38,256 nt of DNA from an uncultured Halobacteriales archaeon (GCA_964404815.1 CAYOLR010000003.1:1-38256); one strand, 5' to 3'. Counted from the first letter of the stretch, positions 6,893-33,140 are shown. Program-made: numbers and translations. The notes: generated by a model not told the origin, from the sequence alone.

Positions 6893-6908
6893 TTATCAGC
6901 TTCGATAA
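6893..6908. promoter_or_regulatory. Palindromic site TTATC-N6-GATAA upstream of first minD
   Basis: TTATC AGCTTC GATAA, 13 bp from TATA CTTAATA (minus strand). Confidence 0.75.
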
Positions 6909-6918
6909 TAATTCTGGA

Positions 6919-7524
6919 TCATGAAAACAGCGCCTGCATCCAATCGTCATCGGTGGCCGGGGCCGTTCTCGTCGCCGCAAGCTGTTCGGCGAGTTCTTCC
7001 TCGAACGGTTCGATCATTGGTTGGACCCGTTCCCGAAGGTCATCGATTCGGCTCTGGAGTCGATGATATTCGTCGCTATTAGCGAGTTCCTCAGGGGTTT
7101 TTTCGGATTCGAGGGAATGCCGTTTCGCCACTAGCGAAAAGAACTCCTGGACTTGGACGTCCCTGACGGAAAGGGCCTGGACACGTTCGATCGCGGAAAT
7201 TAATTCTTCAGAACTTACAGGTTTGGTTAGATACTCGTTAAAGGGCATTGTGATCACGTCGAAATCCGGGTCGATTCCGGTCACCATTACGACGCCACAG
7301 TCGTACCCCTCGGACCGGATCCTGTCAAGAACTGAATCGCCGGAGAGTTCGGGCATCCGTCGGTCTAAGAGGACCACGTCGATAGATTCATCCATACGGT
7401 CCAGGGCCTCCTGACCACCTGGGGCGGTGGCGACCGAATACCGCTCCTCGAGGAGTTCCGCGTAGATCTCGACTACCTGGGGGTCGTCATCGACGATCAG
7501 GACGGTCGTCGTCTCCGAACTCAT
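6919..7524 (-). CDS. Response regulator, receiver plus HalX domain
   Basis: VLIVDDD, VLLDRRMP (phosphoacceptor Asp), YLTKPV, then HalX-like EFFSLVAKR..LESEK..EEL..SDEY.RL; no DNA-binding domain. Confidence 0.92.
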   Translation of the reverse strand: MSSETTTVLIVDDDPQVVEIYAELLEERYSVATAPGGQEALDRMDESIDVVLLDRRMPELSGDSVLDRIRSEGYDCGVVMVTGIDPDFDVITMPFNEYLTKPVSSEELISAIERVQALSVRDVQVQEFFSLVAKRHSLESEKTPEELANSDEYHRLQSRIDDLRERVQPMIEPFEEELAEQLAATRTAPATDDDWMQALFS

Positions 7525-7567
7525 GAGGGAACGTGTCGCGTAAAAACTGAAAAAGGATGGTGTTTAA

Positions 7568-7583
7568 TTATCAGAACGGATAA
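7568..7583. promoter_or_regulatory. Palindromic site upstream of HalX response regulator
   Basis: AATTATC AGAACG GATAATT, core 13 bp from TTTTTCAG (minus strand). Confidence 0.75.
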
Positions 7584-7590
7584 TTTACAA

Positions 7591-8676
7591 CTACCCAGCG
7601 GCTCGGCTGGTCGTCGGGCTACTGGAGGAGACGGGCTCAACAGCGGGGAGACGGAGCTCCACTACGCTCCCGCTCGGGTCGTTCCGTTCGAACGTTACCG
7701 TTCCCCCGTAACTTTCAACCACCCATTTGACGAGCCAGAGCCCAAGTCCCTCGCTGTGAACGAGGTCGGTTTCGTTTGCTCCTTGGAGTACCCGTCGTTC
7801 GTGCTCGGGGATGCCGGGGCCGTCGTCGGCGACCCGGACTACGATGTGGTCTGCCGACCGCCTGACCGAGATTTCGATCGACGGGGACGAGTGGCCGTGT
7901 TCGATGGCGTTTTCGAGGAGGTTGTCCAGAACCGAGGCGAATAGCGAATCCCCTCTCGCCCACGCTGACTCCGGAAGGTCCAGATCGACCGTCGTGTTGG
8001 GGTAGTTCGATCGGATCATAGACGTCCGCTCCCGGACGGTGGCGACGACGTCGATTCGTGAGGCGTCGTCGAGGGGTCCGATCGATTCAATCTTCCGGGC
8101 CGAATCGCTGAGGCTAACGACCTCCTGGATCTTTCGTCGAATTGATTCGAGGGTCGCTTCGTCACTTCCATTGTCGGCGTGAAGTTGATCGAGATATCCC
8201 AGCAGCACGTTCATGTCGTTTCGGATGTTGTGTCGAAGAACTCGGTTCATTACGACGTTCTTCCGGTTGAGTTCAAGCGCTTTTTCGTGTTCTTTCCGAA
8301 GCTCTTTCACCATACCAAGGAGCACGCCGACGACCCCGCCTGCGGCAATCGTGTTGACGAACAGTGTCGGGAACAGGTATAGGATGCGGGTTTGAACCTG
8401 GACGACCGTGAGAATAACGCCTATAAAGGTCGGGATGGAGAGCCCCACCGCACTCCATGCCGCGATGTTCCATATGAGGTCCTCCGGGAGGTCGCTCAGG
8501 TAAAGCCGATACCCGGCATAGAGGAGCGAGCCCGCCATCATTCCCGCGATTACGGTCCCCAAAACGTTGATGATGGCGGGTGCATCGGTAATAACGAAGT
8601 ACCCGAGTAAACTACTGAGCAGCCCAAGACCAGTTCCGATGAGGTAGCCAATCCCGAGCTGTCGTTTGGTGACCAT
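7591..8676 (-). CDS. Membrane-bound sensor histidine kinase (about 4 TM)
   Basis: Hydrophobic N-terminus, H-box RVLRHNIRND, N-box NLLENAIEH, DDGPGI, GLGLWLV. Confidence 0.93.
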   Translation of the reverse strand: MVTKRQLGIGYLIGTGLGLLSSLLGYFVITDAPAIINVLGTVIAGMMAGSLLYAGYRLYLSDLPEDLIWNIAAWSAVGLSIPTFIGVILTVVQVQTRILYLFPTLFVNTIAAGGVVGVLLGMVKELRKEHEKALELNRKNVVMNRVLRHNIRNDMNVLLGYLDQLHADNGSDEATLESIRRKIQEVVSLSDSARKIESIGPLDDASRIDVVATVRERTSMIRSNYPNTTVDLDLPESAWARGDSLFASVLDNLLENAIEHGHSSPSIEISVRRSADHIVVRVADDGPGIPEHERRVLQGANETDLVHSEGLGLWLVKWVVESYGGTVTFERNDPSGSVVELRLPAVEPVSSSSPTTSRAAG

Positions 8677-8725
8677 CGGGGTGGGCCAGCGTACAGGATG
8701 ACGGAATATAAACTGTCAGTTCCAG

Positions 8726-8741
8726 TTTTCAGTCTATAGAA
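8726..8741. promoter_or_regulatory. Palindromic site variant upstream of first membrane kinase
   Basis: TTTTC AGTCTA TAGAA, 13 bp from TTTATA (minus strand). Confidence 0.55.
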
Positions 8742-8753
8742 TGACTTACGCAG

Positions 8754-9086: not shown

Positions 9087-9237
9087 GTCGTTTCGACTGG
9101 GGCCATGACCGTCGAGGACCATAAGCGTACGGCAGACGGAGGGCTGACGGAACGGTGGGGAAATATCAAATATTGAATTTGGGTGCCAACGGTTTTTTAT
9201 TCGGTGGCCGCTCCGAGGGAACGGAGGCACCTGGCGC

Positions 9238-9993
9238 GTGGCCGACGTCGTATTGAAGGGCGAACTCCACACGAGTCCCGAGGATCTCGAGGAGGCCAAG
9301 GACCTGCTCCTCGACGGGGTGGATGTCATCGTGCTTGAGGGGAGTGCCTATACGGATTCCTCGATCGAGCTCGCACAAGGGTGGTTCGCCCTCACGTTGA
9401 CGTCGTTTTTCTGGATCCTCGATAGCGTCTATATCGACAATGACATTCTAGTCGACCTGGCCCGTGCCAAGGGAACGTCCGTCGTGTATACGAGGGAAAC
9501 GGATACGGCGATCGCTGAAAACGTCTCGTTTCCCGTTAAGGCCCTGGCTGGCGCGGTGTTTTACGTCTTGACGCCGGCGAGTATCTGGACTGGCTTTCTC
9601 ACCGGCAGTCAACTCTTCGGGGCATACCTATTGTTCCTTGGGTTGGTTCTGCCGATCGGGATCGTACGGATGTTCGATACCCGGGGTCAAACCGTCAGTC
9701 GGGATCGGTATATCGCCGACGAGATCCGGGGGGCCCTAAATCGGGGGGAGTCCGTGTTGGCAGTCGTGGGTGCCGCCCATGTCGACGGGATTCAGCGGCG
9801 GCTTCCCCCCGATATCGACATCGAGTTGCGGCCACCGAAGTACGGCGTCTGGTCCATTCACCACTTGCGACAGATCGCCCTGCCGATGTTCAAAGCCGGC
9901 TTGGTGCTCTTTTCGATGTATCTGTTGGCGGTGTGGTTCGCCGTTCACGCGGTAGCAACACTGTCTCCGTTAGTTGAGGGCCTCCTCGTCTGA
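9238..9993 (+). CDS. TraB/PrgY/Tiki-like membrane protein
   Basis: GELH, VIVLEG, RDRYIA and VLAVVGAAH.DGI match TraB-family metal-site motifs; about 3 TM segments. Confidence 0.7.
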   Translation: MADVVLKGELHTSPEDLEEAKDLLLDGVDVIVLEGSAYTDSSIELAQGWFALTLTSFFWILDSVYIDNDILVDLARAKGTSVVYTRETDTAIAENVSFPVKALAGAVFYVLTPASIWTGFLTGSQLFGAYLLFLGLVLPIGIVRMFDTRGQTVSRDRYIADEIRGALNRGESVLAVVGAAHVDGIQRRLPPDIDIELRPPKYGVWSIHHLRQIALPMFKAGLVLFSMYLLAVWFAVHAVATLSPLVEGLLV

Positions 9994-10061
9994 GTTCGGG
10001 ATCCGGGAGGCGTGGCCAGAAGGTTAATTCGGTGGGATGTCGAGGGTTTACCGCAAGGGTC

Positions 10062-12881
10062 ATGTCAGATGATACCACATCCGATTTCGAACAGGGGCGG
10101 CTGTTCGAACTGTACACGAAATACGTAACCGAGCCCGAGTCGAAACGAGACGTTTACGGATATACGATCCTCCTGGTAGGCTATCTCCTGGGGATGGCCG
10201 GAATGGTAGTGTTCCTGATCGGCCCGTCGGGTGGTGATCTCGACCCGATAACGGTCCTGGTCCGGGAGATTTCGATCCCGGCGGCCGGCCTCGGTCTCGT
10301 TATTACATTGTTCGGGATCGAGCTCATGCTCCCGGTGAAACGCAAGGGCATCGCCATCGGGGGCGTGGGAACCGCAATGGGGCTCACTGCGGCGGGCTGG
10401 TTCATCGTGGCGTATCCACAGAACTGGTCGATCGGCACGCCCGATTACAGCTCAGCGATTATCACCCTCTACACGGCCGGGATCGCGCTGGTCGCCGGGG
10501 TGGTAGTTATGGTGCCTGTCATCACCGGCGAACGATCGTACTTCGCCGCGGCCCGGGAGGTGCTTGGTCAAGACCATCCGGACATCATGCTCGGCCGGAC
10601 GGATCGCGGGGGGCTGTTCACCATTTTTAACCGTGGCTCGGACTGGACTTGGCGGCTGATCGATCAGGCAGCGATCGCGGAATCGACCGACGCCTTTCTC
10701 TCCCGCCTCGAGACCGAAAACCGGGTTGACCGGGTGAAGGATCTGGTAGACCAGGCGGCCCTCCTCGAAATCGCTCACGCCGCCTTCCGCCTGTATCGGG
10801 TCGGAGAGGACCGTTGGCGATGGCTCTTGATGCGCGAAAACGGGAGCGTGGTGGCGGACTCCGGTGACGAATATCCGTCACGGGAGGCAGCCGAGTCATC
10901 GGTCAACGACCTCAAGGAATTCGGGCCATCGGCGACGGTAATTGCGATCGACGAAGCCGCTTTCGAGACATATCCCGCCGATGGGGGATGGAAATGGCGG
11001 CTGATAAATGACAGACGGGAGACGCTGGCGACCAGTGCGACTCCAGTGGAGGACAAGGCGGCCGCCAAACGGGCGGCCGACGCGTTCGTCGAACGGGCGG
11101 TGGACGCGCCGCAGCTCACGATCGAGTCATATGGCATCGAACTCCTCGAGGGTGATGACGCTGGGTGGCACTGGCGGCTGCTAGACCCCGGTCTCGAGGT
11201 CTTGGGCGGGGCAACGCGAGCCCATCCCAGCAAAGGGGTGGTCGAGGACGCCGCCTATGATCTTTTGGAGCGGCTCGACGGCGCGGCGCTATTGGATGGT
11301 ACCGAGTCATCCTATGACCTCTTCGAGGACCCGTCGGGTAACTGGCAGTGGCGGCTCGTGACCCCCGAGAATCGGCGGATCGTCACGGGGAACGGGTCGG
11401 GCGCGAACCCCGGCGCGGTCAGGTCCGAGGCGCGGGCGTTCAGAGACCTCGCTCCCGGCACAGATATCGTCGAGATCCGGACGCAGGACTTCGAGGTGTA
11501 TCAGGCCAATGGCCATTGGCACTGGCGGCTGGTCGACAGCGATCGGGCGGTCCGGGCGGAGAGCGTGGAGGCATACGACTCCGAGGAACAAGCAGCATCC
11601 GCGATCGATCGGCTCCGCCAGCAGGCCCCCGACGCGGACCTCATCGAGTTCGAAACTGCAGCCTTCCAGATCTATGAATCCGAGGAGGGTGGGTGGCGAT
11701 GGCGGCTCATCGACGAGGATGGTAACGTCCTGGCCGATTCGAGCGAGGGAGAGTACGATTCGCGGGATGGGGCGACGGCGGCCATGGCCACACTAAAGGA
11801 GTACGCACCCGAGGCCGAGCAGCTCGAGATCGAGACGGCTGCGTTCGAACTGTTCGAGGATCCTGACGAGGGCTGGGGATGGCGACTGGTGGACGATATT
11901 GGCGAAACCATCGCTCGAGGATCCCGTCGATATCCCACGCGGGACGAGGCCCACGATGACATGGATGCGCTGCGAGGGGAAGTCGAGGACGTCCGCGGCC
12001 GCGTCATGTCGGATGGTATCTTCCAGGTCTACCAGGATGGGGCCGATGAATGGTGGTGGCGGTTCGTCCGGCCCGATGGGACTGACCTTGCCGAGAGTCC
12101 CGAAGGGTTCGGAACCCGCCACGAGGCCGAGGATGCGATCGACGAACTCGTCGACGACCACGTCGGCGCCGGCATCGCCGAGGTCGGTCAACTCGCCGTA
12201 GTGGTCGACGAATCCGGCGAGGATTGGACCTGGCGGTTCGTCGACCAGGACCGGATTCCGATCGCCGAGAGTACGCGCCAATACGAGACGCGGAACGCCG
12301 CCCGACAGGCGATCGGCGATGTCCAGTCGGCGGTTGATACGGTTACGGTCTTCGAGATCCGGGATGCCGCGTTCTTCGTGACGGATGGAGAATGGACCTG
12401 GGCACTGTTCGACGAGGCTCACGAGGAGGTCGCCGTTGGCGCAGAATCGTTCGACAGCCTGGAGGCGGCAGAGGCGAATGTGGATACCGTCACGAATCGG
12501 GTCGACAGCGCGGGGTATATCGATTACGAGGGAGCGGCCTTCGAAGTTCACGACACCGATGACGGGTGGCAGTGGCGACTCATCGACGAAGCTCGGAACG
12601 TGATTTCGGCGAGCACGGAAACGTACGAGAGCAAACAGGCCGTCGAGGAGACGGTCGAGGCGATCAGAGAGGAACTCACGGAGGCGTCCATTCTGGAGAT
12701 CGAACGGGCCGCCTTCGAGTTTCACGAGGACACCCAGGGCTGGCGCTGGCGACTCATCGACGAATCGGGTAATGAACTCGCCGAAAGCCTCCAGGCTTAC
12801 GAAAGTCGAACCGATGCACGCGAGGCGATGACGACGGTGAAGGATTTCGCGCCGGAGGCGTGGACGTCGGTCGCGGATTGA
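10062..12881 (+). CDS. Membrane-anchored protein with 4 TM segments and 13 tandem YegP/DUF1508-like repeats
   Basis: Hydrophobic N-terminal domain followed by 13 units of about 58 aa: F-x-x-Y-x-D-x-x-x-W-x-W-R-L...A-x-S...Y-x-S-R-x-x-A. Start at MSDDTTS. Confidence 0.9.
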   Translation: MSDDTTSDFEQGRLFELYTKYVTEPESKRDVYGYTILLVGYLLGMAGMVVFLIGPSGGDLDPITVLVREISIPAAGLGLVITLFGIELMLPVKRKGIAIGGVGTAMGLTAAGWFIVAYPQNWSIGTPDYSSAIITLYTAGIALVAGVVVMVPVITGERSYFAAAREVLGQDHPDIMLGRTDRGGLFTIFNRGSDWTWRLIDQAAIAESTDAFLSRLETENRVDRVKDLVDQAALLEIAHAAFRLYRVGEDRWRWLLMRENGSVVADSGDEYPSREAAESSVNDLKEFGPSATVIAIDEAAFETYPADGGWKWRLINDRRETLATSATPVEDKAAAKRAADAFVERAVDAPQLTIESYGIELLEGDDAGWHWRLLDPGLEVLGGATRAHPSKGVVEDAAYDLLERLDGAALLDGTESSYDLFEDPSGNWQWRLVTPENRRIVTGNGSGANPGAVRSEARAFRDLAPGTDIVEIRTQDFEVYQANGHWHWRLVDSDRAVRAESVEAYDSEEQAASAIDRLRQQAPDADLIEFETAAFQIYESEEGGWRWRLIDEDGNVLADSSEGEYDSRDGATAAMATLKEYAPEAEQLEIETAAFELFEDPDEGWGWRLVDDIGETIARGSRRYPTRDEAHDDMDALRGEVEDVRGRVMSDGIFQVYQDGADEWWWRFVRPDGTDLAESPEGFGTRHEAEDAIDELVDDHVGAGIAEVGQLAVVVDESGEDWTWRFVDQDRIPIAESTRQYETRNAARQAIGDVQSAVDTVTVFEIRDAAFFVTDGEWTWALFDEAHEEVAVGAESFDSLEAAEANVDTVTNRVDSAGYIDYEGAAFEVHDTDDGWQWRLIDEARNVISASTETYESKQAVEETVEAIREELTEASILEIERAAFEFHEDTQGWRWRLIDESGNELAESLQAYESRTDAREAMTTVKDFAPEAWTSVAD

Positions 12882-12892: not shown

Positions 12893-12908
12893 TCATCAGA
12901 CTTGATAA
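12893..12908. promoter_or_regulatory. Palindromic site upstream of ORF 13041
   Basis: TCATC AGACTT GATAA, 13 bp from weak TATA GCTAAG. Confidence 0.65.
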
Positions 12909-13040
12909 TTAGCGGGGTAGGGCTAAGGGCGCTCGGACGCCGATCCCGGACATGGGACCGACACCGTGGGGACGGCCGGCGATGAAGGCGCATCAAGTGA
13001 TCTGGGATTCCGAGCAGCGCCCTGTGGAGGTGATCAGCCC

Positions 13041-13550
13041 ATGGAAATGACGTTCTCCGAACGGAATCAGAACGCGTACCTGGTCGACGAGATCGAAGTC
13101 TCCATGACCATTAAGGACGGGAAATTTACGGCGACATCGACGAGTGGCCCGAAGTCGGGACGGGTGGAGTTCAATCCGGGGGAGACGACGGTCGAACTCG
13201 TGCTCGAAGGTGCAGGCTCGGACCGGGCGTCGGTTCCGATGAGCCGCCCGGAACTCACCCAACTCAGAACCACGATCGATGCAGTTCTGGCAAACGAGTT
13301 TGCCGACAGGGATAGCTCGTCGGAGCGTGGCCGGGGGACCTTCTTTGCGGGATATCGACAGCTCCGGGAACAGGACGAAGGGATCGGGGTAACGTTCGAT
13401 ACCGAAACGCTCAGTTCCCTTGGGTTGGTCGATGAAGCCGGATCGCTCACGGGGGGATCGAGGCAGGTCCAGTGTACCGTGCTTCAGAGTGGTGTCGCGA
13501 TCATCAACCTGGTACCCGACGAATCGTCGCAGATGTTCGACGTCTTTTGA
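13041..13550 (+). CDS. Hypothetical protein (169 aa), possible C-terminal AbrB-like swapped hairpin
   Basis: Acidic ORF with SD GGAGGTGA before ATG 13041; RQLREQDEGIGVTFDTETLSSLGL loosely resembles AbrB/MazE folds (tentative). Confidence 0.72.
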   Translation: MEMTFSERNQNAYLVDEIEVSMTIKDGKFTATSTSGPKSGRVEFNPGETTVELVLEGAGSDRASVPMSRPELTQLRTTIDAVLANEFADRDSSSERGRGTFFAGYRQLREQDEGIGVTFDTETLSSLGLVDEAGSLTGGSRQVQCTVLQSGVAIINLVPDESSQMFDVF

Positions 13551-13700: not shown

Positions 13701-15293
13701 GTGCAAGAATCGACAGACATCCTCGTATTCGCCCCTGACGAGGACCTCTTTGACTCGGTGGAAACGGCCCTCGAACCGCTTGGGTCGTCGGTCATTCGCG
13801 CTCGGACGGCTATCGAGACGGTGAAATACCTGGATGACCGTCGGTTCGGTGCCGTGATATGTCCGGCGGCGGAAACGACGCCCGAACCCCCGAGGTTCGT
13901 CGAACTCGTCCACAACGAGTCTCCGAGCGTCCCTGTCGTCCTCGTGGGCACGGCGCCCGACACCGATTCGATCCGCCGTGCCGTCGAAGCCGGAGCCGCC
14001 GCTCATGTCGAGGCCATCGGCGTCGACCTCCGGAAGGAACTTACGACGATCGGCTTTGAGACACGAATCCGTGACGAGCTAGATCGACACAACCGACTCG
14101 GCCGTGTGGTCCGCGAACTGGGCCAGTCGCTCTTCACGGCCACGACGGTCGACGAGGTCGAGCGGCTCGTGTACCGGCGGCTGTCCGAAGCTGGCCTATA
14201 TCAGTTCATTTGGGTTGGGGCCCCGGGCGATGACGGGAAAATCGACCTCCACGTCCCGATCCCGAGTACTGTCGCCGCGACAGAAATTCCGGGGATCGAC
14301 GCGGAGGCGGGAGCGGCGAAAGTCGACCACGCGCTCAAGTCTGGCTCGATCGAGGTAGTCGGGGACGGCGAGGGGTTTACCCGTCGGGTCCTCAGCGGGT
14401 CCACCGGACCGGACACGGACAATGGACCGGGTAATGACGCTGGGCTCACGACGGCGATAGTTCCCTTCGTCGGCGAGGGGTCGGTCGTAGGGGTCGGGGT
14501 CTTTGCCACGGAGAGGTCTCGCGGGATCGATTCGGCCGAGGCATCGGTACTGGAGACATTGAGCCGGTTGACCGGGACGGCGATCTGGCTGGTAGAAGCC
14601 CGTTCGGAACTGCAGCGGACCCGCCAACGCGTCGAGGAGTTTGCCGGTCTGATCGCCCATGAAATCCGCAATCCGCTCGCGATAGCGATGACGCAACTGG
14701 ATCTACTTCGTGAAGGGGAGGACGGCCAAGCCATCGATCGGGTCGATTCCTCGCTGCAACGGATCGAACGACACGTCGAGAACCTGGTAACTCTGTCGCG
14801 GGGTCTCGATATTGACGACCTAACGACCCAGGCGATCGCGGAGACGGCATCGGCGGCGTGGGAGTCGCTCGAGACGCCGGGCGCGGAGCTCGTAATCGAG
14901 TCGTCGAGGCCACTGGCGGCCGATCACGACCTGCTGATGCAATGCTTTAGTAATCTGTTTCGCAATGCCCTCGAGCAGGAGACAGAAGGAAAAACAGTCG
15001 TTCGCCTCGGGAGCTTCGACGAGGGGTTCTATGTCGCTGATAATGGGCCGGGAATTCCGCCCGAGGAACGAGAGCGGGTGTTCGAATCGGGGTATTCGCA
15101 GAGCGCCGGCCTCGGCATTGGTCTCACCGTCGTTCGTGAGATCTGTCGCGTCCACGGGTGGTCGATCGAGGTGAAGGAAAGCCGAGAGGGTGGCGCAAGA
15201 TTCGAGATCAGGACGGAGGGGCCTGACGATAACGACGGGTCCGACGACCGGCTCTCCGGGCCGTTCGATACGGACACCGTCACCGATTTTTAG
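13701..15293 (+). CDS. Cytoplasmic hybrid histidine kinase: degenerate receiver, GAF, HisKA, HATPase
   Basis: Receiver-like N-terminus, GAF (YQFIWVG...IVPF...VGV), H-box AHEIRNPL, NLFRNA, DNGPGI, GLGIGL. Confidence 0.9.
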   Translation: MQESTDILVFAPDEDLFDSVETALEPLGSSVIRARTAIETVKYLDDRRFGAVICPAAETTPEPPRFVELVHNESPSVPVVLVGTAPDTDSIRRAVEAGAAAHVEAIGVDLRKELTTIGFETRIRDELDRHNRLGRVVRELGQSLFTATTVDEVERLVYRRLSEAGLYQFIWVGAPGDDGKIDLHVPIPSTVAATEIPGIDAEAGAAKVDHALKSGSIEVVGDGEGFTRRVLSGSTGPDTDNGPGNDAGLTTAIVPFVGEGSVVGVGVFATERSRGIDSAEASVLETLSRLTGTAIWLVEARSELQRTRQRVEEFAGLIAHEIRNPLAIAMTQLDLLREGEDGQAIDRVDSSLQRIERHVENLVTLSRGLDIDDLTTQAIAETASAAWESLETPGAELVIESSRPLAADHDLLMQCFSNLFRNALEQETEGKTVVRLGSFDEGFYVADNGPGIPPEERERVFESGYSQSAGLGIGLTVVREICRVHGWSIEVKESREGGARFEIRTEGPDDNDGSDDRLSGPFDTDTVTDF

Positions 15294-16684
15294 TCCGACG
15301 AGTCGAGCAGATCGCCCGAAAGGGCCTCGGCGATGGCCCGGCGTCGGGCCTTCCCATCTTCGACGTCTTCACGAAGGTCAGCGACCTCATCGGCGACGTC
15401 ATCGATGGTGGTTTCGAGGGCATCGATCTGGTCCGCCATGTCCGTCCGTGCCTCACTGGCGTCACGGCGGAGCGTGGCGAGCGCGGCTTCGAGGTCCGCA
15501 ATATCGTCGGAGAAATCGGTCCGCTCATCGGCTGCCGTCTCGATCGCTGATTGCAGGTCATCGATTTGGCCCGTTATTCGATCCTGTGTGTCGGTCATGT
15601 CATCGAGACGATCCATCGCCACGTCGAGGTCGGCACCGAGCTCGGTCAGGTCCGTCTCGATGGTATCGAGATCGGACTTGATCTCCGTAACGAACTCCTC
15701 CGCGGTCCCGTGTTCGTCGATAAGGTCGCGGAGGGCCTCTGTGTAAGCGGCGAACTCCTCCATGTTGGATTCGATCTGTTGCAAACGGACCTCCGCGCTT
15801 CGGGGAAGCCCTGCCGATGGCTCATCCACGAACTTGCTGAGTTCAGTCGCCAGGGCCTCGCCTCGTTCGGTCTCCGGGGACTCGGCCTGGAGAGCGGTTA
15901 CCAGTTCGTCGATAAGGTGGCTGTCGTCGAGTCCGGTTGGGGAGTTCGAACCGGCCTGGGGGTCGTCAGTCGGCGGCCCCTCGGAGTCCGACGCTTCGGT
16001 CTTGGAGAACAGTTCCTCGACCGATTCCGGTGCCGTCGCGTCAGTTACTGTCGCATCCGGGTCGTCCTCAAGGTCGGTGATGGCCTCCGCTACGGCTACC
16101 GCCGCCTCTTCGGATTCCGATGTTTCCACATTGGCCGAGGCCGGCTCCTCGCGGGCGGCCGGCGTCTGGTCGGTACCCCCGAATACCGAGTTTTTGAGGT
16201 TCGTGAATAGTTTTTGGTCCGCCGTCTCACTCCCGACCCCGCCGCGCGCCATGGCTGGCGTTTCGAGGTCAACCTCGTCGACCTCCGCCGCCTCGATTCG
16301 TTCCTCGAGTTCGATCGTAGGGGGTACGCCGGTTTGGTCGGGCTCGATTGCGTCCGGGGACAACACCCGTCCTGGACACATTCCGTATTTGACCACTCGC
16401 TCGTCGTCGGGGTCGAGGACCCCGCCAACAACGACTTGGTGATCCTCGATCCGTCCGTGGCTCGGTTGGTGGTCGGGATGAAAACCGATTTCATCCAGGT
16501 CGTACGAGCCCGGGAGGGGGTCGATACACTGGTACTTGACGGGGGTATCGGCGTGTGAGGCGAACCGTAACGTGACCATAATCCCTGAGTCCCGGACGAC
16601 AAGGGATCTGTTGATGGCCAGAAGGTCGCCCTCGACCGTAATCGGGTCGAGTTCGACGCCGGAAGAATCCTTATCACGTGGCAT
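15290..16684 (-). CDS. Acidic protein with N-terminal beta domain, disordered linker and long C-terminal coiled coil
   Basis: IGFHPD-containing globular N-terminus and clear heptads over the last 150 aa; start MPRDKD at 16684 fits the TATA box near 16712-16718. Confidence 0.85.
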   Translation of the reverse strand: MPRDKDSSGVELDPITVEGDLLAINRSLVVRDSGIMVTLRFASHADTPVKYQCIDPLPGSYDLDEIGFHPDHQPSHGRIEDHQVVVGGVLDPDDERVVKYGMCPGRVLSPDAIEPDQTGVPPTIELEERIEAAEVDEVDLETPAMARGGVGSETADQKLFTNLKNSVFGGTDQTPAAREEPASANVETSESEEAAVAVAEAITDLEDDPDATVTDATAPESVEELFSKTEASDSEGPPTDDPQAGSNSPTGLDDSHLIDELVTALQAESPETERGEALATELSKFVDEPSAGLPRSAEVRLQQIESNMEEFAAYTEALRDLIDEHGTAEEFVTEIKSDLDTIETDLTELGADLDVAMDRLDDMTDTQDRITGQIDDLQSAIETAADERTDFSDDIADLEAALATLRRDASEARTDMADQIDALETTIDDVADEVADLREDVEDGKARRRAIAEALSGDLLDSSD

Positions 16685-16731: not shown

Positions 16732-16747
16732 TTATCAAATTTGAATT
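16732..16747. promoter_or_regulatory. Palindromic site variant upstream of coiled-coil gene
   Basis: TTATC AAATTT GAATT, 13 bp from TATTAAG (minus strand). Confidence 0.55.
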
Positions 16748-19823: not shown

Positions 19824-19839
19824 TTATCAAATAATGTAA
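19824..19839. promoter_or_regulatory. Palindromic site variant upstream of second membrane kinase
   Basis: TTATC AAATAA TGTAA, 13 bp from GTTAAG. Confidence 0.55.
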
Positions 19840-21034: not shown

Positions 21035-21050
21035 TTCTCAATTTTGAATA
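21035..21050. promoter_or_regulatory. Palindromic site upstream of zinc-ribbon gene and ftsZ
   Basis: TTCTC AATTTT GAATA, 13 bp from GTTAAG. Confidence 0.6.
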
Positions 21051-21094: not shown

Positions 21095-21328
21095 ATGTCG
21101 GCCCCTGAAGCGAAATCACACGACTCCCGCCTGGACTTCGACTCCGGCGATATCCTGGAAGTCTGTGAGGTCTGCGCCCGCGAAACCCGTCACGAGGTTC
21201 GGCTGGAAATCGCCTCAATGGCCCGTTCGGCCACCGGGACCGATCGGACCTACGCCAACGAACCCCGGCGCATTACGACGTGCCGGGTTTGTGGGATCGA
21301 GTCGAAGACCTGGATTACCCGGCAATAA
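21095..21328 (+). CDS. Small zinc-ribbon protein (CEVC...CRVC, 77 aa)
   Basis: Two CxxC motifs with ET.HEV and EP.R..TC; TATA at 21064. Confidence 0.85.
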   Translation: MSAPEAKSHDSRLDFDSGDILEVCEVCARETRHEVRLEIASMARSATGTDRTYANEPRRITTCRVCGIESKTWITRQ

Positions 21329-21420
21329 CGGACGGCCGGTTGAGCTGGTTTCGAGGCCCGGTACGTACGACGGGAGTCTGACATAAACTAATAACCCGGC
21401 GTCGCGAATCGGCGCACGTC

Positions 21421-22527
21421 ATGGACGTTGAAGTCGATGGGATGATCGAATCCATCGAACAGGAGGAACTCCGCGAACAGGCGGGTTCGGAATCGGCCGG
21501 GATTTCCGACGCCGCGTTGGAAGCGATGTTGGACGACCGAGATACACAGATCACGGTCATCGGGTGTGGCGGGGCCGGATGTAATACGGTAAACCGGATG
21601 GTCCAAGAGGGCATACACGGCGCGGACCTTGTTGCGATGAACACCGACGTTCAGGATCTCATCGAGATTTCAGCCGATGACAAGCTCCTGCTCGGTGCCG
21701 AGGAAACCCGTGGCCGGGGTGCTGGATCGCTCCCCCAGGTTGGAGAACAGGCGGCAATTGAGAGCGACAAGGCCATCAGGGATATCGTGGATGGACAGGA
21801 CCTAGTATTCGTAACCGCTGGGATGGGCGGCGGGACCGGGACTGGAGCGGCCCCTATCGTCGCCCAAGCCGCGCGGGAGGCCGGCGCGCTGACCGTCGCC
21901 ATCGTAACCATGCCGTTCACCAGCGAGGGAGAAGTTCGCCGACAGAATGCCGAAGCTGGCCTTGACCGATTGAAGGAAATCGTTGACACCGTGATTGTGG
22001 TCATGAATGACCGGCTCCTGGATGCCGTTGGTAAGGTGCCGATCAAGCAGGCCTTCAAGGTGGCTGACGAGGTATTGATGCGGTCCGTGAAAGGGATTAC
22101 CGAGTTGGTCACGACCCCCGGTATGGTGAACGTGGACTTCGCGGACGTTGAAACCGTGATGGACTCCGGGGGGGTCGCGATGATCGGATTCGGCGAAAGC
22201 GACAGCGAACACAAAGCCCGGGATGCCGTCAATAAGGCGGTCCAGTCGCCACTGTTGGACGTGGACCTCGAGGGGGCTGACGGCGCGCTCGTAAACGTAA
22301 CGGGTGGCCCGGAAATGTCTATCGACGAGGCCGAAGGGGTCGTCGAACAGATTTACGACAGGATCGATCCCGATGCGAGGATCATCTGGGGGACCGCCAT
22401 CGACGAGTCCCTCGGGCGCACCTTACGGACTATGGTCGTACTGACCGGAGTTGACTCGCCCCAAATCGCCGGGCGAGCCGAGGAAGCGACACCGGCCGAT
22501 AACGAGTCGATCGATCATATCGTGTAG
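21421..22527 (+). CDS. ftsZ: Cell division protein FtsZ, FtsZ1-like
   Basis: [27 protein letters not shown] tubulin signature, PF.SEGEVRR, T7 loop [16 protein letters not shown]; C-terminal IDHIV resembles the haloarchaeal FtsZ1 tail. Confidence 0.97.
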
Positions 22528-26589: not shown

Positions 26590-26605
26590 CTATCAATTTC
26601 GATAG
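26590..26605. promoter_or_regulatory. Palindromic site upstream of DUF5658-like gene
   Basis: CTATC AATTTC GATAG, 13 bp from TTTTTAT. Confidence 0.7.
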
Positions 26606-26657: not shown

Positions 26658-27062
26658 ATGGGAGTTACCGGCCTCGAGGCCAGGGTTCAAGAATACTGGG
26701 ATTGGCTGGCGGTCGGGCTCTTCGTTTTGATCACGGTCGACATGATTACGACGGTCTATGCTGCACGGGCGGTTGGTTTAGCGGGTGAGGCCAATCCCGT
26801 CGTCCGGTGGTCACTGCTTCAAGGACCGATAGCGTTCGCAGGAATCAATCTGATCGCTGTCATTGTCGTGGTAACACTATTTGATCGAATACTGGATTTG
26901 TTGCTCGTTACGCCCGAACCATATGAACGGTACGCCGCGGCAGCCGTCGAGGCTTGGCTCGGGGGATTGCTTGCAGCGGGATTATTGGTTTTCGCCAATA
27001 ACCTTGCGGTAATCGTCCACGGACAAAGCCTGATCGACGCGGTCCGCCCGGCCGTCGGATAG
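26658..27062 (+). CDS. Small membrane protein, DUF5658-like
   Basis: VDMITT.YA...EANP motif, 3 TM, terminal NNL. Confidence 0.82.
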   Translation: MGVTGLEARVQEYWDWLAVGLFVLITVDMITTVYAARAVGLAGEANPVVRWSLLQGPIAFAGINLIAVIVVVTLFDRILDLLLVTPEPYERYAAAAVEAWLGGLLAAGLLVFANNLAVIVHGQSLIDAVRPAVG

Positions 27063-27113: not shown

Positions 27114-27129
27114 CTCTCATTTTTGAAAA
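27114..27129. promoter_or_regulatory. Palindromic site upstream of second minD
   Basis: CTCTC ATTTTT GAAAA, 13 bp from CATATATA. Confidence 0.62.
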
Positions 27130-27180: not shown

Positions 27181-28113
27181 ATGGGCGCGCGCGTCATCGC
27201 CGTGACGGGCGGTAAAGGGGGCGTCGGGAAGAGCACGACGACCATCAACCTCGCTGTCTCCCTCCGTATGGACGGCTACGCCGTGGTGATCGTCGATACC
27301 GATCTGGAGATGCCGAACATCGTGGAGATGCTCGGCATTGAGCCGACGAAGACGATCCACGATGTGCTCACCAACCGTGCGACGACAGAGGAGGCTATCG
27401 TCGAGCTCGATGACGGTTTCGGGGTCGTACCCGGCGACCCGACACTGGCCGGATTCGCGGGAGTCGACGCGGGAAAACTTCGATCCGTCGTCGAGACGCT
27501 ACGGGAAACCTTCGACGTAGTTCTCCTCGATACGGGCGCCGGCCTCAGCTACGATGACGTCATGCCGTTGGGGCTTGCCGATGAGGTCCTGTTGGTTACA
27601 TCGCCAGATGCGGCAGCCGTGCAGAACGCTTCCCGGAGCGAGGCGTTCGTTAGAAAACTCGGCCAACCCTTGACCGGTATCGTGGTGACGAACGCGACCG
27701 GCCCGGTCGAAGGAACGGTCAGCGAAACATTCGATGCGGAGATCATCGCCGTCGTACCGCAGGATTCCGCGGTACGGGAAAGCACGGCGCAAGGAAAGCC
27801 GCTCGAAGTTTTCGCGCCGGAGACGGAGGCCGCGGCGGCGTACAGAAGATTGGAAGCCGTCCTTACGGACGGGAACCTGCCACCGTCGAACGCCGGACGG
27901 GAGCAGGGGGGAAATCAGGGCGGATCGGTGGAAGATAGCTCAAGCGATCCGGATGATGACGAAGACACGGCCGAGCCAGCGACGGCGGAAGCCAGCACTG
28001 ATGAGACGGAGGGGGAGACCACCGGAGCGGACGCCGACCCCGGTGCCGGGGGGGTCGATGAAGAGGCAGGTGATGGTTTGTTGTCCCGGGTTAAACAACG
28101 GTTTATCGTTTAA
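27181..28113 (+). CDS. minD: MinD/ParA family ATPase with acidic tail and amphipathic C-terminal helix
   Basis: GKGGVGKST, DTDLEMPN, TIHDVL, LLDTGAGL; tail ends GLLSRVKQRFIV. Confidence 0.93.
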   Translation: MGARVIAVTGGKGGVGKSTTTINLAVSLRMDGYAVVIVDTDLEMPNIVEMLGIEPTKTIHDVLTNRATTEEAIVELDDGFGVVPGDPTLAGFAGVDAGKLRSVVETLRETFDVVLLDTGAGLSYDDVMPLGLADEVLLVTSPDAAAVQNASRSEAFVRKLGQPLTGIVVTNATGPVEGTVSETFDAEIIAVVPQDSAVRESTAQGKPLEVFAPETEAAAAYRRLEAVLTDGNLPPSNAGREQGGNQGGSVEDSSSDPDDDEDTAEPATAEASTDETEGETTGADADPGAGGVDEEAGDGLLSRVKQRFIV

Positions 28114-28260: not shown

Positions 28261-28276
28261 TTATTATATTTGATAA
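28261..28276. promoter_or_regulatory. Palindromic site upstream of C2H2 microprotein
   Basis: TTATT ATATTT GATAA, 13 bp from TTGAAGTA. Confidence 0.62.
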
Positions 28277-28321: not shown

Positions 28322-28438
28322 ATGGACCGGAAGACCGCGCCCATCACCTGCCTGTTTTGTGGAAAGCGCTTCGACACCCCCACCGATCTGTATAGACATT
28401 CCGGAGAGGAACACCTCCGGTCCAAATCGACCATTTAA
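28322..28438 (+). CDS. Unannotated 38-aa single C2H2 zinc-finger microprotein
   Basis: Manual translation MDRKTAPITCLFCGKRFDTPTDLYRHSGEEHLRSKSTI*, a canonical C-x2-C-x3-F-x5-L-x2-H-x4-H; preceded by the palindrome at 28261 and TATA-like TTGAAGTA at 28290. Confidence 0.82.
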   Translation: MDRKTAPITCLFCGKRFDTPTDLYRHSGEEHLRSKSTI

Positions 28439-29268: not shown

Positions 29269-29478
29269 GGGCTACTTCCAGGTGTTCCCCATGGTGTCTT
29301 CATGGTTTCGGCCAGGACGATTGGATCTTGACGTCCGATCGCCTGAAAGCGGAGGAATCCCGAACGCAATCGAGATGAGGGGACTTGCGGTCGCCCGCTT
29401 GTTCCCGCGGTTGGAAGCCGCAGACCAAATCATGCAAGTCACCTTCCCCGCCCTAATCAGTAGGTGACGAAGTAGTTC

Positions 29479-30160: not shown

Positions 30161-30218
30161 TGATATTCTCCCTGGCGTGGTCGGTGTTGGGGGATCCAGG
30201 GGCCTAGGTCTGAGAAGA

Positions 30219-30234
30219 TTATCAAATATAATAA
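30219..30234. promoter_or_regulatory. Palindromic site upstream of PAS-DHH pair
   Basis: TTATC AAATAT AATAA, 13 bp from TTAATA. Confidence 0.62.
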
Positions 30235-30276
30235 TTCTTCCGCTACGTTAATACCCCATGTGTGTCAAGTCCTCAC

Positions 30277-30672
30277 ATGGCCGCACGGAAGGACGTCCGA
30301 AAACTCTCGCTACTCGAGAAGGCGGTTGAGGCGGCACCTGATGGGATCGCGGTAATGGATGATGCCTATCGGTTCATTTACGCGAACACGCGGTATCTGG
30401 AGCTGTTCGGAATCGATCGGGGGGAAGCGCTAATCGGCGAAGATTGGCGGGTTGCCCACCCGGACCGAGAACACGAATTCATTGAAAATGAGGTCCTCCG
30501 TGATGTGCGCCGTTATGGAGATTGGCGAGGTGAGGTCATCGCTGTGGACGAGAAAGGACGCTCCCGGCGGGTCGAGCTATCGATCAAGGACGTCGAAGAC
30601 GCGACCGTGTGGTTCGCCCGGGTCGCCGCGAATGATACGGAATCATTCCGGGAACCAAGGAGACAAAGCTGA
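30277..30672 (+). CDS. Stand-alone PAS domain protein
   Basis: AVEAAPDGIAVMD...FIYAN..YLELFG...LIG..W...WRGE....G....VELSI. Confidence 0.88.
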   Translation: MAARKDVRKLSLLEKAVEAAPDGIAVMDDAYRFIYANTRYLELFGIDRGEALIGEDWRVAHPDREHEFIENEVLRDVRRYGDWRGEVIAVDEKGRSRRVELSIKDVEDATVWFARVAANDTESFREPRRQS

Positions 30673-30728
30673 CGGGACGGGCAAACAGCTTTTTGGTTGG
30701 CGCGGAAATTGTCCTGAAACCGACGCCG

Positions 30729-31913
30729 ATGGTCGATACCCTCCCTCTGGTCCTGGAGCGGGTACGCTCCCTTATTACGGTCGACCCGATGGCAGCGGCA
30801 ATCCTGGGTACGGTTGCCGTCATCTTCCTAGCCACCCTTGCATATCTGCTGTGGTCCTGGCGCCATTTACCCCCGGGAAAACGGTTTTGTTCGCTCCTGG
30901 AACAACAGGACCGGGTATTGGTGCTGCTGCATCCGAACCCTGATCCGGATGCCATGGCTGGCGCACTGGGAGTTCAAGAACTTGGCGAACGGCTCGATAC
31001 GACCGTCGATGTGTCGTATCCTGGGCGGATCGCTCACCAGGAGAACAGGGCGTTTCGAACCGTCCTGGGTGTGGATTTCGATCGTATCGAAACAGCCGAG
31101 ACAGTGAAGTCCGCACCGGTCATTCTTCTCGATCACAACGTGGCTCGTGGCTTCGACGGCGCCGACGACATCGAACCGGTGGCCGTCGTGGATCACCATC
31201 CTGGCAACGGGACCGGCACGGAATTCACGGACGTCCGGGAAACCTATGGTGCGACGGCGACGATCGTGACGGAGTATCTCCGCGACACCGGTATCGATTA
31301 CGACCAGAAATCGTTGCCAACCCACGTCGCGACCGGTCTAATGTACGGGATCCTTTCGGATACTGACCATCTCGTTAGCAATGGGACCGATCCCGATTTT
31401 GCCGCCGCGGCCTACCTGTCTGAGGCAGTCGACGAAAACGCCCTGAATCGGATTGCGAATCCCCCGGTGGACGCGACGATCCTCGATACGGTTGCACGGG
31501 CGATTCGTAACCGGGAGGTAAGGGGCCCCTTCGCCGTCTCCGACGTCGGCGAGATCGATAACCCGGATTCGATCCCGCAGGCGGCGGATAAGTTACGCAA
31601 CCTCGAGGGAGCGACGGTGGTGATCGTTTTCGGCATATACGACAACGAGATTAAGTTGTCCGGGCGTTCCCGGGATGATCGGGTCAACATTGGCGACGCC
31701 TTAAGCGCTTTGGCCGCTAAACTCAGTGGTGATGGAAAGCTAGCGGGTGGCCACTCTCGGATGGGTGGAGGTCAGATACCGATCGAGTCTATTGACGGAG
31801 CTTCTGAAGGGGACCTTCCGGCAATCACAGATGAAGTTTTTGACATAGTGGGCGGGGCTCACGAGGGTGAGGCAGAATCGGCACCCCCGGTCAACAGGAA
31901 GTCGGTTGAGTGA
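30729..31913 (+). CDS. DHH/DHHA1 family phosphoesterase with N-terminal TM anchor
   Basis: HPNPDPDA, LLDHN, VVDHH, SDT, LSGRSR, AGGH..MGG; hydrophobic helix near the N-terminus. Confidence 0.92.
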   Translation: MVDTLPLVLERVRSLITVDPMAAAILGTVAVIFLATLAYLLWSWRHLPPGKRFCSLLEQQDRVLVLLHPNPDPDAMAGALGVQELGERLDTTVDVSYPGRIAHQENRAFRTVLGVDFDRIETAETVKSAPVILLDHNVARGFDGADDIEPVAVVDHHPGNGTGTEFTDVRETYGATATIVTEYLRDTGIDYDQKSLPTHVATGLMYGILSDTDHLVSNGTDPDFAAAAYLSEAVDENALNRIANPPVDATILDTVARAIRNREVRGPFAVSDVGEIDNPDSIPQAADKLRNLEGATVVIVFGIYDNEIKLSGRSRDDRVNIGDALSALAAKLSGDGKLAGGHSRMGGGQIPIESIDGASEGDLPAITDEVFDIVGGAHEGEAESAPPVNRKSVE

Positions 31914-32081
31914 TAACATCGAGGATTTGGCCCGGCGGCAACCGGTTCACTGGGTCACATCCACCGGTATGGAGGGGCCGTGGTGAAAGGTTGTCGCGGA
32001 CCCTTCAATGTACCAGCCAGTCGCAGCTTTCCACCCCGGCTCGTTAGGTGGTTGGGGACGGTGTCAGGATAGATCCAGTCT

Positions 32082-32300
32082 TGGACGTCCTCCCGCGCTG
32101 AAGCGGGGGAGTTTCCAGCTGGGGGCGTCAGCTCATCGAGGGGTAGTTTGCCGGTTCGTGGGCGGCGCGTCGGGGCAAGTGAGCGCGTGACGACGCCGGA
32201 CCGTTGGGACTCTCCAACTTCGCCTACGCGGGCTGCGCCTTGGTCCTGACTCGCCCCGACGGCACGATGGTGAGACCCACGTGAGTGACCGCACGTACCG
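32082..32300 (-). mobile_element. Degenerate IS200/IS605 right-end / omega-RNA remnant
   Basis: Minus strand ...CACGAACCGGCAAACTACCCC...CCCCCAGCTGGAAACTCCCCCGCTTCAGCGCGGGAGGACGTCCA resembles IS1341-type right ends (compare GAGGATGTCAA at 4948). 5' boundary uncertain. Confidence 0.6.
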
Positions 32301-32466
32301 GGTCGTCACTCAACTGGTGTTAGTTGACGATGGTTGCGGGAGGTGCGAATAATTTCAAGCACCGCACGGTTATCAAAAATTTTATGTAATATGTGAGGGA
32401 AATAACCGTTACTGAGCGTGGATGACCGGTGATTCCATCGAGCCTGGGTAATGCAGGAATTATCGG

Positions 32467-32834
32467 GTAAACTACCCCGGCCTCCGCTGGCGCTTCGCGC
32501 CTCCATGGCAGCCGGGGCTTCCTGCTTCGGTGTCGGAACTTGCATCGGACGGCACAGCGGTTCCAGCCTCCAGAGGCGGTGTCCCGTGCTGGGTGGTTCG
32601 GAGTGTCCCACTCCTCCCGGTTCGACACTCCGGCCACCCGTCCGGTGCACGCTTATTGTCGCGCTACAAACGCCGAAGATACCGTGGCAGAGCGTCTTAC
32701 TACCCTCGGTGGACCGCACGGGTAGAACGCCTATCGGAGCGCACGGAAACGACCGACGACGGCGCTATATCCCCCCCAACCCCGCTCCCGTCGGTCGCAT
32801 CGTAGAGGATGGGGGCTTACCGCCTGGACTGAAG
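32467..32834 (-). mobile_element. Non-autonomous IS200/IS605 derivative (MITE-like, omega-RNA bearing), copy B
   Basis: TTAG|CTTCAGTCCAGGCGGTAAGCCCCCATCC ... GGAAGCCCCGGC...GCCGGGGTAGTTTAC; aligns end to end with copy A. Confidence 0.85.
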
Positions 32835-33124
32835 CTAAATCCCATCCCGAAGTGCGGTTGAAGCCGCACAACTTTTATAATGCCCAGATTGTCGCTACCA
32901 TGGTCAAGCGGGAAACCAGGCGGCCGAAACACCGAGCCCCGGTCACCGTGAAGAACTCTCCGATTTCGATGCGCCCACTCATACGGATAATAATGTGGAG
33001 GGAGCACCTTCGGCAGCCGATCTCAAGTGGTAAATTCAAGGTCTCCATTGCCTCGCGATCGTGTTCTCATCACCATGTCCGCCGTTATCGGTTGTTTACC
33101 GTATCGTTCTGTGAAATCAGCTGG

Positions 33125-33140
33125 TTATTAATACCGATAA
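33125..33140. promoter_or_regulatory. Palindromic site upstream of third membrane kinase
   Basis: TTATT AATACC GATAA, 13 bp from CTTAAG. Confidence 0.68.

Follow-up and report, generated by a model that had tools for sequence, protein, structure and literature searches.

A palindromic promoter box shared by thirteen promoters of one genomic island and about eighty across the genome of an uncultured haloarchaeon is probably the operator of a CsmR orthologue

The 38,256-nucleotide (nt) stretch of DNA analyzed here (GCA_964404815.1, CAYOLR010000003.1:1-38256; hereafter the window, at its full length) corresponds to contig C3 of the 3.04-Mb assembly of an uncultured Halobacteriales archaeon (380 contigs, 82% complete, 64% G+C), and many of its promoters carry the palindromic box TTATCA-N4-TGATAA just upstream of a TATA box. 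An original prediction, made from the sequence of the window, had described twelve such sites as TTATC-N6-GATAA. The motif and the regulator proposed below to read it have already been published in 2026 for Haloferax volcanii, and the box is not new here; what is new is its transfer across species, a larger and differently composed regulon, an island of thirteen promoters and a box in the promoter of the regulator gene csmR. The host is a haloarchaeon whose family is known from incomplete genomes only, with no close relative in the collections; the window FtsZ1 reaches at most 72% identity to any match in 80 genomes of the class and five further genomes, and the window MinD has no homologue above 47% identity outside its own genome. 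Phylogenetic footprinting of the window promoters gave nothing because too few close relatives are available, and a sequencing-run search with the window sequence returned no RNA run and four DNA runs, all from one sediment-metagenome study. Genes were predicted with a codon-usage caller, which is rough, omits many small genes and places start codons approximately; a simple call based on G+C content at third codon positions (GC3) missed many genes and was dropped.

In the following description of the window, domain assignments are from Pfam unless stated otherwise, mismatches are counted against the 12-base consensus of the box, scores are those of a held-out model introduced below, and offsets give the number of nt between the end of the box and a TATA-like word. 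The left part holds a tRNA synthetase fragment, TmcA and an oxidoreductase. A MinD-like ATPase gene (6049-6846, minus strand; ParA/CbiA, with minD_arch as the top NCBIfam match, under its cut-off) is preceded by the box TTATCGAAGCTGATAA, read on the minus strand at 6893..6908 (1 mismatch, score 30.0), with the top TATA word TTAATACC at offset 14 and 46 nt to the GTG. The gene of a receiver-HalX response regulator (6919-7524, minus strand; Response_reg and HalX) has the box TTATCCGTTCTGATAA at 7568..7583 (minus strand, 1 mismatch, score 29.0), where TTTTTCAG starts 13 nt past the box and 43 nt separate the box from the ATG. Weaker is the box of the first histidine kinase of the HisKA_4TM type (7591-8676, minus strand; HisKA_4TM and HATPase_c), TTCTATAGACTGAAAA at 8726..8741 (minus strand), with 4 mismatches, a score of 21.6, TTTATATT at offset 13 and 49 nt to the ATG.

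The weakest of the thirteen, absent from the original list, is the candidate ATATCAAATATTGAAT at 9163..9178 on the plus strand (5 mismatches, score 20.4; TTTTTATT at offset 15, 59 nt to the GTG), which precedes a gene with a weak TraB-like match (9238-9993, plus strand). It may serve as well the adjoining plus-strand gene 10032-12881, encoding a 949-amino-acid (aa) protein that combines an N-terminal DUF7139 domain with seven DUF1508 repeats. A second DUF7139 gene (300 aa, C34:4230-5132) adjoins that of volactin, with strong boxes at both, and DUF7139 may be a cytoskeleton-associated family. The box TCATCAGACTTGATAA at 12893..12908 (plus strand, 1 mismatch, score 23.9) has only the weak TATA word GCTAAGGG at offset 13 and an ATG 43 nt downstream; its target is unannotated, being either a 32-aa open reading frame (ORF) at 12952 or a 194-aa ORF read from the GTG at 12966 (12966-13550, plus strand), which has no Pfam or NCBIfam match. 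Beyond a GAF kinase gene (13701-15293) lies a coiled-coil protein gene (15290-16684, minus strand; just weak coiled-coil and SMC-like matches), whose box AATTCAAATTTGATAA at 16732..16747 on the minus strand has 3 mismatches, a score of 23.0, TTTATTAA at offset 11 and 47 nt to the ATG. A large glycosyltransferase gene is also present in the window.

The second HisKA_4TM kinase gene (19882-21018, plus strand) is preceded by TTATCAAATAATGTAA at 19824..19839 (plus strand, 3 mismatches, score 21.8), with GTTAAGTG at offset 13, the top-scoring word at 7, and 42 nt to the GTG. It is followed on the same strand by the gene of a 77-aa DUF7835 zinc ribbon (21095-21328; CEVC...CRVC in the protein), with the box TTCTCAATTTTGAATA at 21035..21050 (plus strand, 3 mismatches, score 26.3; GTTAAGGG at offset 13, 44 nt to the ATG), and then by ftsZ1 (21421-22527, plus strand). 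Further right, all on the plus strand, a small membrane protein gene (26658-27062; weak DUF5658 match) has the box CTATCAATTTCGATAG at 26590..26605 (3 mismatches, score 23.4; TTTTTATC at offset 13, 52 nt to the ATG), and a second MinD-like ATPase gene (27181-28113; ParA/CbiA, minD_arch again the top NCBIfam match and under cut-off) has CTCTCATTTTTGAAAA at 27114..27129 (3 mismatches, score 28.5; TATATACC at offset 15, 51 nt to the ATG). The box TTATTATATTTGATAA at 28261..28276 (1 mismatch, score 30.3), with the top TATA word CTTAATTT at offset 6 and TTGAAGTA at 13, precedes by 45 nt the ATG of a C2H2 zinc-finger micro-protein (28322-28438; C-x2-C ... H-x4-H in the translation). This 38-codon ORF was missed by the gene caller, and it begins downstream of one of the best boxes. 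The window maximum, 31.7, belongs to TTATCAAATATAATAA at 30219..30234 (1 mismatch; TTAATACC at offset 13, 42 nt to the ATG), in front of a PAS gene (30277-30672) that is followed by a DHH/DHHA1 phosphoesterase gene (30693-31913). The third HisKA_4TM kinase gene (33195-34307) is preceded by TTATTAATACCGATAA at 33125..33140 (2 mismatches, score 28.5; CTTAAGCC at offset 13, 54 nt to the ATG). Pfam and translation agree with the targets named from the sequence at the outset, i.e., two MinD proteins, three HisKA_4TM kinases, the HalX regulator, zinc ribbon, coiled-coil protein, PAS-DHH pair and finger.

All 12 coordinates of the original prediction carry the sequences given there. Allowing up to 2 mismatches to TTATC-N6-GATAA, the window contains 15 matches, compared with 7.74 ± 2.75 (largest 14) in 100 dinucleotide shuffles, none of which reached 15 (0/100). 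Eight of the 15 are sites of the original prediction; the other seven (6185, 20393, 20648, 23243, 23838, 23986 and 24266) are not promoter-like, correspond approximately to the chance expectation and score 11.5 (20648) or below 8 (remaining six) in the composite scan. The sites at 8726, 16732, 21035 and 27114 exceed 2 mismatches to this 10-base pattern and have 3-4 against the 12-base consensus. The spacing of the half-sites was examined by keeping them and varying the gap alone across the whole genome, with 15 other spacers. Exact TTATC/GATAA pairs occur nine times at N6 and 0-3 times at each other spacer; with up to 1 mismatch the numbers are 65 and 12-45. TTATCA/TGATAA with up to 2 mismatches occurs 77 times at N4 against 13-29 at other spacers, and TATCA-N4-TGATA with up to 1 mismatch 48 times against 14-23, the reversed-pattern control giving 10.

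A palindrome-only model, when refined iteratively on either a genome or an intergenic background, came to match AT-rich DNA in general and was dropped, and the analysis used in its place the first-round seeds together with a composite model of 38 columns (box, gap and TATA) trained on sites outside the window alone. This held-out model scores all 12 reported sites at 21.6-31.7, each in the orientation of the downstream gene, and adds the weaker site 9163-9178. No score of 8 or more occurs upstream of tmcA or the oxidoreductase in the window, where the original prediction had likewise seen no box. Genome-wide, 82 unique sites score 20 or more. One of these falls within a coding sequence, and 13 belong to the window, which represents 1.3% of the genome (binomial p 3.9e-11). 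Ten shuffles of intergenic DNA, done in blocks of 30 nt so that AT-rich stretches stay in place, gave a mean of 1.1 matches and a largest value of 2, compared with 86 real matches when orientations are counted. The notion that these matches are a chance likeness among AT-rich promoters can draw on the 3-5 mismatches of several window sites, on the drift of the iterated models and on the approximately seven of 15 window matches that stay at chance level without support from the composite scan. It is contradicted by the N4/N6 excess of the spacer control, the block shuffles, the scores of all 12 sites in the held-out test, the concentration of 13/82 sites in 1.3% of the genome and the tight distance from box to start codon described below. 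Chance is thus practically excluded for the set as a whole, while single weak sites, such as 9163 and 8726, could be of this kind; as a set, the box TTATCA-N4-TGATAA is confirmed as real and above chance.

The sites share a defined promoter geometry. Seeds fall inside coding sequence in 5 of 77 cases, against 2-17 of 13-29 for the control spacers, and the motif ends 40-59 nt before the predicted start codon in 28 of 68 site-gene pairs, against 1-6 in the controls. Within those 28 pairs, A is found at +11 past the motif in 19, and the successive bases T-T-T-A-T at +14 to +18 in 14, 17, 14, 21 and 15. Among the 68 oriented seeds, the top-scoring TATA word lies at an offset of exactly 13 in 33 and of 12-14 in 43. 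In the window this offset is 13-15 at nine of the 13 sites and 11 at one, and at 7568, 19824 and 28261 another offset scores best, though a TATA-like word stands also at 13; the distance of 13 (±1) bp originally proposed for every site therefore applies to most of them, not to all. In ordinary promoters of this genome TTTAT begins about 30 nt before the ATG; therefore transcripts are expected to be mostly leaderless, with the box at about -60 to -45. The box-to-start distance is about 45 nt at leaderless start codons, and the composite element measures 16 + 13 + 6 = 35 bp, the box lying directly upstream of the TFB-recognition element (BRE) and TATA, its center about 21 bp ahead of the first TATA base and the centers of the half-sites TATCA and TGATA 9 bp apart. 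The base counts of the 28 pairs, with TTTAT beginning 13-14 nt past the box, bear out the location just upstream of BRE/TATA given in the original prediction.

A TATCA-N4-TGATA element of Haloferax mentioned in that prediction proved to be the chromatin immunoprecipitation sequencing (ChIP-seq) motif of CsmR (HVO_1209) of H. volcanii (Nussbaum et al., PLoS Genet 2026; PMC13286277; preprint 10.64898/2026.02.03.703544). CsmR is described as a winged-helix protein of 13 kDa whose gene lies upstream of arlA1/arlA2 and adjoins the archaellin genes and the KaiC homologue cirA (PMC13286277). Of its 65 ChIP-seq sites, 50 contain TATCA(N4)TGATA, a semi-palindrome within an approximately 34-bp promoter-proximal element adjoining BRE/TATA, and the reported regulon comprises archaellum, chemotaxis, sph3, rdfA and pilin genes (PMC13286277). 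Likeness to Lrp/AsnC is said to be limited to the N-terminal DNA-binding part (PMC13286277), and members of the HVO_1209 family are expected to dimerize through a beta-sandwich, with a fold similar to Phr (PDB 2P4W). The targets concern shape and motility, in agreement with the shape programme suspected from the window. In the literature searched, only this paper and its preprint join CsmR with haloarchaea, and no cross-species comparison of the box was found.

The CsmR orthologue of the present genome is a protein of 114 aa encoded on another contig than the window (C23:16979-17320, minus strand), with Pfam matches to HTH_20 (4.9e-10) and HTH_24 (3.3e-4) and no NCBIfam match. Its only sequence match in the PDB is weak (E = 0.21) and concerns PH1932 (1ULY), which we take to be a relative of Phr. 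The gene order is KaiC (4.2e-50), csmR-like gene, DUF7521 and archaellin. Sixty-three related csmR loci were found in named haloarchaea, with an archaellin gene in 50 and a KaiC gene in 57 of the fetched flanks. The orthologue is 65-67% identical to proteins of Haloferax (H. gibbonsii, H. denitrificans, H. mucosum and others) and 80% identical to its counterpart in one uncultured Halobacteriales genome. In the Haloferax loci the gene lies immediately upstream of the archaellins with KaiC beyond, which is the arrangement given for hvo_1209. The archaellum promoters of this genome carry the box, both at the archaellins (C23:16543, score 29.8; C69:1985, score 27.8) and at ArlC/D/E (C23:9065, score 26.9). 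The model built from this genome finds four sites in each of the Haloferax csmR loci listed, one of them just ahead of an archaellin gene. Of the 63 csmR loci, 57 contain one or more sites with a score of at least 18 (182 sites in 499 kb in total). As the model transfers to the csmR-arl loci of Haloferax, both motifs are the same thing. The palindrome is thus probably the operator of this organism's CsmR orthologue, and from orthology we infer that CsmR binds these sites here.

The likeness to the H. volcanii system extends from the semi-palindrome upstream of BRE/TATA at archaellin and arl promoters to the position of the regulator gene beside archaellin and KaiC/CirA genes, and to a regulon that mixes motility, signaling, pili and shape. 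There are also differences. Fifty motif-bearing peaks in H. volcanii compare with about 82 predicted sites here, in an assembly that is 82% complete, and thirteen of the latter are packed in one 26-kb island, a feature that sets this genome apart. The outer bases favor TTATCA/TGATAA here and ATATCA/GTATCA in Haloferax species.

Co-occurrence of box and regulator was assessed in 80 genomes of the class by setting the count of TATCA-N4-TGATA (up to 1 mismatch) against that of the reversed pattern as a control, and against the best CsmR match. In the 34 genomes with a close CsmR (E <= 1e-39), the median excess is 22 sites, and the motif is at least 2-fold enriched in 25; in the 13 genomes with no or a weak CsmR, the corresponding values are 4 sites and two genomes. 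Three genomes of a genus without csmR (family f2) have no excess, with motif/control counts of 19/20, 17/15 and 23/17. That the motif excess follows close CsmR supports this protein as the putative reader of the box.

The promoter of csmR itself has an unusual order, consisting of TTTTAAA, 8 nt, the box GTATCTGAATTGATAA, 2 nt and the ATG (C23 17320-17335, minus strand). In 20 of the 63 loci, compared with 4/63 for a control region, csmR is preceded within 60 nt by a box with up to 2 mismatches; these include loci of the nearest uncultured relatives as well as of Haloplanus, Halobaculum, Halolamina and Salinigranum. None of the Haloferax csmR loci has such a box in these 60 nt, in contrast to the full box between TATA and ATG here. 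This position, in which a bound protein would block polymerase recruitment, suggests negative autoregulation of csmR. The string 'autoregulat' is absent from the main text of PMC13286277, and the presence of the box in csmR promoters of several genera raises a testable point on CsmR biology. The same promoter bears on the idea that the element is a core-promoter extension read by an alternative TFB/TBP variant, for which the rigid spacing to TATA would speak, as would the mention that the TFB variant HVO_0226 may add another level of regulation (PMC13286277). Such an extension is very unlikely, since the box ends 13 bp upstream of TATA, past the BRE, has the two-fold symmetry expected of a dimer site and at csmR sits downstream of TATA, unlike a directional core element, and since ChIP-seq assigns it to CsmR (PMC13286277).

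Outside the window, Pfam scans of 39 genes behind high-scoring boxes, together with archaellin matches, indicate what the operator would control. Boxes precede genes for motility and pili (two archaellins, ArlC/D/E, a PilB-type ATPase and pilins), for the cytoskeleton (CetZ, volactin and two salactins) and for signaling (further HalX regulators, a CheY-like receiver, a REC-PAS kinase and two more HisKA_4TM kinases), as well as for three KaiC-like proteins, three DUF7504 proteins, one DUF7139 protein, winged helix-turn-helix (wHTH) proteins, coiled-coil proteins and a REC-HalX-GAF-BAT-HTH_10 protein of the QarA type (C105:6940-9612). Six of the seven HisKA_4TM matches of the genome are boxed, including 5/5 above the Pfam cut-off, the kinases outside the window lying on contigs C20, C186, C202 and C42; within the regulon, this kinase family seems to have grown in the present lineage. 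For HalX, 5 of 16 genome matches are boxed. The sites cluster, with 13 on C3 (the 26-kb island), six on the archaellum contig C23 and five on C74. The original prediction spoke of about 12 genes joined by one palindrome; the joining by a single operator stands, and the regulon is larger, with about 80 promoters centered on an archaellum that lies outside the window.

Two observations on individual targets may be added. Boxes precede two DUF7521 small membrane-protein genes (C23:16592-16873 and C309:298-636), one of them directly after csmR, and the DUF7521-labeled pair HVO_B0192/B0193 is reported as the most up-regulated genes in a qarA deletion of H. volcanii (PMC13464002). For the boxed CetZ (C74:9548-10816), identity reaches 87% with one Haloferax larsenii CetZ, a copy without a box, and does not exceed 51% with any CetZ copy from four other species of Haloferax, which is a patchy distribution for this paralogue.

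The targets are distributed unevenly among lineages. MinD homologues of relatives have a site scoring 18 or more in 1 of 20 cases, and those of five Haloferax species in 0/10 (best 14.7); HisKA_4TM loci of other families are boxed in 1/28. In Haloferax, volactin (0/2), CetZ (0/14) and DUF7504 (0/12) have no box, and neither do QarA-like genes at eight loci of five Haloferax species (0/8, best score 13.8). MinD, QarA-like, CetZ, volactin and DUF7504 genes are therefore boxed here and unboxed in the Haloferax species examined, though tables S10-S12 of the CsmR paper may list some of these targets. Among the genomes examined, the archaellum part of the regulon is common to lineages and the rest mostly is not, and the window island appears to be a lineage-specific addition to a conserved regulon. 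We lean somewhat towards the reading that, in this lineage, the regulon of CsmR has grown and been rewired to become a master programme of cell architecture, with about 80 promoters under one operator; regulator and site would be conserved and the targets would turn over fast. This programme would span CetZ, volactin, two salactins, two MinD proteins, all five clear HisKA_4TM kinases, 5 of 16 HalX proteins, the QarA-like protein and pili, and also little-studied small genes, namely those of the DUF7835 zinc ribbon ahead of ftsZ1, the 38-aa C2H2 finger, DUF7139/DUF1508 and DUF7504.

Several observations weigh against CsmR as the reader of the whole set and as its activator. H. volcanii is absent from the 63 loci, so that orthology was drawn via other Haloferax species. 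Most targets of the window type have no box in Haloferax or other families, and the published ChIP data cannot vouch for the window promoters. Co-occurrence is confounded by phylogeny, relatives not being independent; the 33 genomes with a 50-59%-identical CsmR have a median excess of 5 sites and at least 2-fold enrichment in four only, which suggests that the site drifted where the protein drifted. Moreover, genome G051 has a 68%-identical CsmR and 6 sites vs 6 in the control, while G045 and G066 lack a close CsmR and still have 33/13 and 19/6. Full-length wHTH paralogues about 29-31% identical to CsmR are encoded at C23:1095-1445 and on C253, with shorter partial matches on C4, C173 and C61, and these could share or compete for the site. 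Box promoters have a median TATA score of 7.3 against 4.75 for others and so are not weaker, in a comparison made noisy by the unreliable start-codon calls of ordinary genes. Finally, in the csmR deletion of H. volcanii the box genes go up and the cells are non-motile (PMC13286277).

Some of these points would fit a division of labor in which the box, although real, is read here by another regulator, either a paralogous wHTH protein or a HalX/BAT-HTH_10 protein of the QarA type, CsmR serving the archaellum only. The paralogue at C23:1095-1445 (Pfam HTH_20) is itself boxed (score 27.2), boxes also precede the QarA-like REC-HalX-GAF-BAT-HTH_10 gene and the genes of several HalX regulators, deletion of qarA alters arlA1/arlA2, rdfA and sph3 in H. 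volcanii as deletion of csmR does (PMC13464002), and most targets of the window type, unboxed in Haloferax, fall outside the ChIP evidence. Yet a single model trained on sites elsewhere, archaellin promoters included, fits the window sites, with no sign of two site classes, and the excess of the motif follows the presence of close CsmR orthologues. As a rule, paralogues that are about 30% identical recognize different sites, which we count against such a division. The motif obtained directly by ChIP-seq is that of CsmR (PMC13286277), and we consider another reader unlikely.

If CsmR is the reader, its dimer would bind the half-sites TATCA and TGATA on one face of the DNA, as would fit the two-fold symmetry and the 9-bp distance of the half-sites. 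The bound dimer would abut the BRE, touch TFB/TBP and alter the assembly of the pre-initiation complex, and about 82 promoters would in this way be tied to one programme, the window genes together with the archaellum, pili, CetZ, volactin and salactins. The position next to the BRE is the classical place of archaeal activators that recruit TFB/TBP. The sign of control is a separate matter. The original prediction had a factor that switches on its targets, which is not established, given the rise of box genes in the csmR deletion of H. volcanii (PMC13286277). Overexpression of csmR in that species gives hypermotile, permanent rods, and the authors propose an activation counter-balanced by the KaiC homologue CirA, leaving open an activator, repressor or dual role (PMC13286277). 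We give about even chances to recruitment-type activation modulated by a CirA-like partner and, equally, to repression or dual action. An argument for activator dependence from weak TATA boxes was considered and rejected, as box promoters score higher.

Comparable systems are known in archaea. Activators of the Lrp/Ptr2 type are dimeric winged-helix proteins that bind a palindrome immediately ahead of the core promoter and recruit TBP/TFB; the box promoters described here differ in that they do not have weak TATA boxes. EarA uses another binding site, and we know of no cytoskeleton or kinase genes among its targets. In Methanococcus maripaludis and Pyrococcus furiosus, EarA, also a winged-helix protein, binds upstream of an archaellum promoter and is thought to help recruit TFB, as BRE mutations bypass it (PMC13286277). 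According to the same source, EarA is unrelated to CsmR in sequence and structure and is absent from H. volcanii (PMC13286277). The two-component system QarABC of H. volcanii controls the same switch between rods and disks and of motility, QarA being a REC-HalX-GAF-BAT-HTH_10 protein (Cote et al., mBio 2026; PMC13464002). A protein of this architecture (C105:6940-9612, above) and several REC-HalX proteins are boxed here, which is a point of likeness; unlike for CsmR, no DNA motif of QarA is reported in the consulted parts of that paper (PMC13464002).

The operator was found from raw sequence alone, and the box is therefore recognizable, and can be used predictively, in uncultured haloarchaea. 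If the orthology reading is true, it lists candidate genes of motility, shape and signaling, many of them of unknown function; if the enlarged programme is real too, the box would offer an inexpensive way to predict new genes of shape and motility from the genome of any haloarchaeon. The comparison of lineages suggests that the content of the regulon differs strongly between them while the archaellum core stays constant.

We also would like to point out an observation on ftsZ1. The clear target of the box at 21035 is the small zinc-ribbon gene alone, because ftsZ1 downstream has its own conserved promoter and other ftsZ1 loci have no box, although transcripts may also read through into ftsZ1. 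In the window, this promoter contains gtctgacATAAACTAATAA (21375-21400), about 24 nt before the ATG of ftsZ1, and resembles the ftsZ1 promoters of other families, at which a DUF7835 gene or the box was found in 0 of 29 loci (best score 12.5). In many haloarchaeal families, ftsZ1 promoters carry an inverted repeat of approximately gtcagacg...cgtctgac just upstream of TATA, followed by gggaaagATAAT. The window sequence is related to this conserved element, which may be the site of a cell-division regulator.

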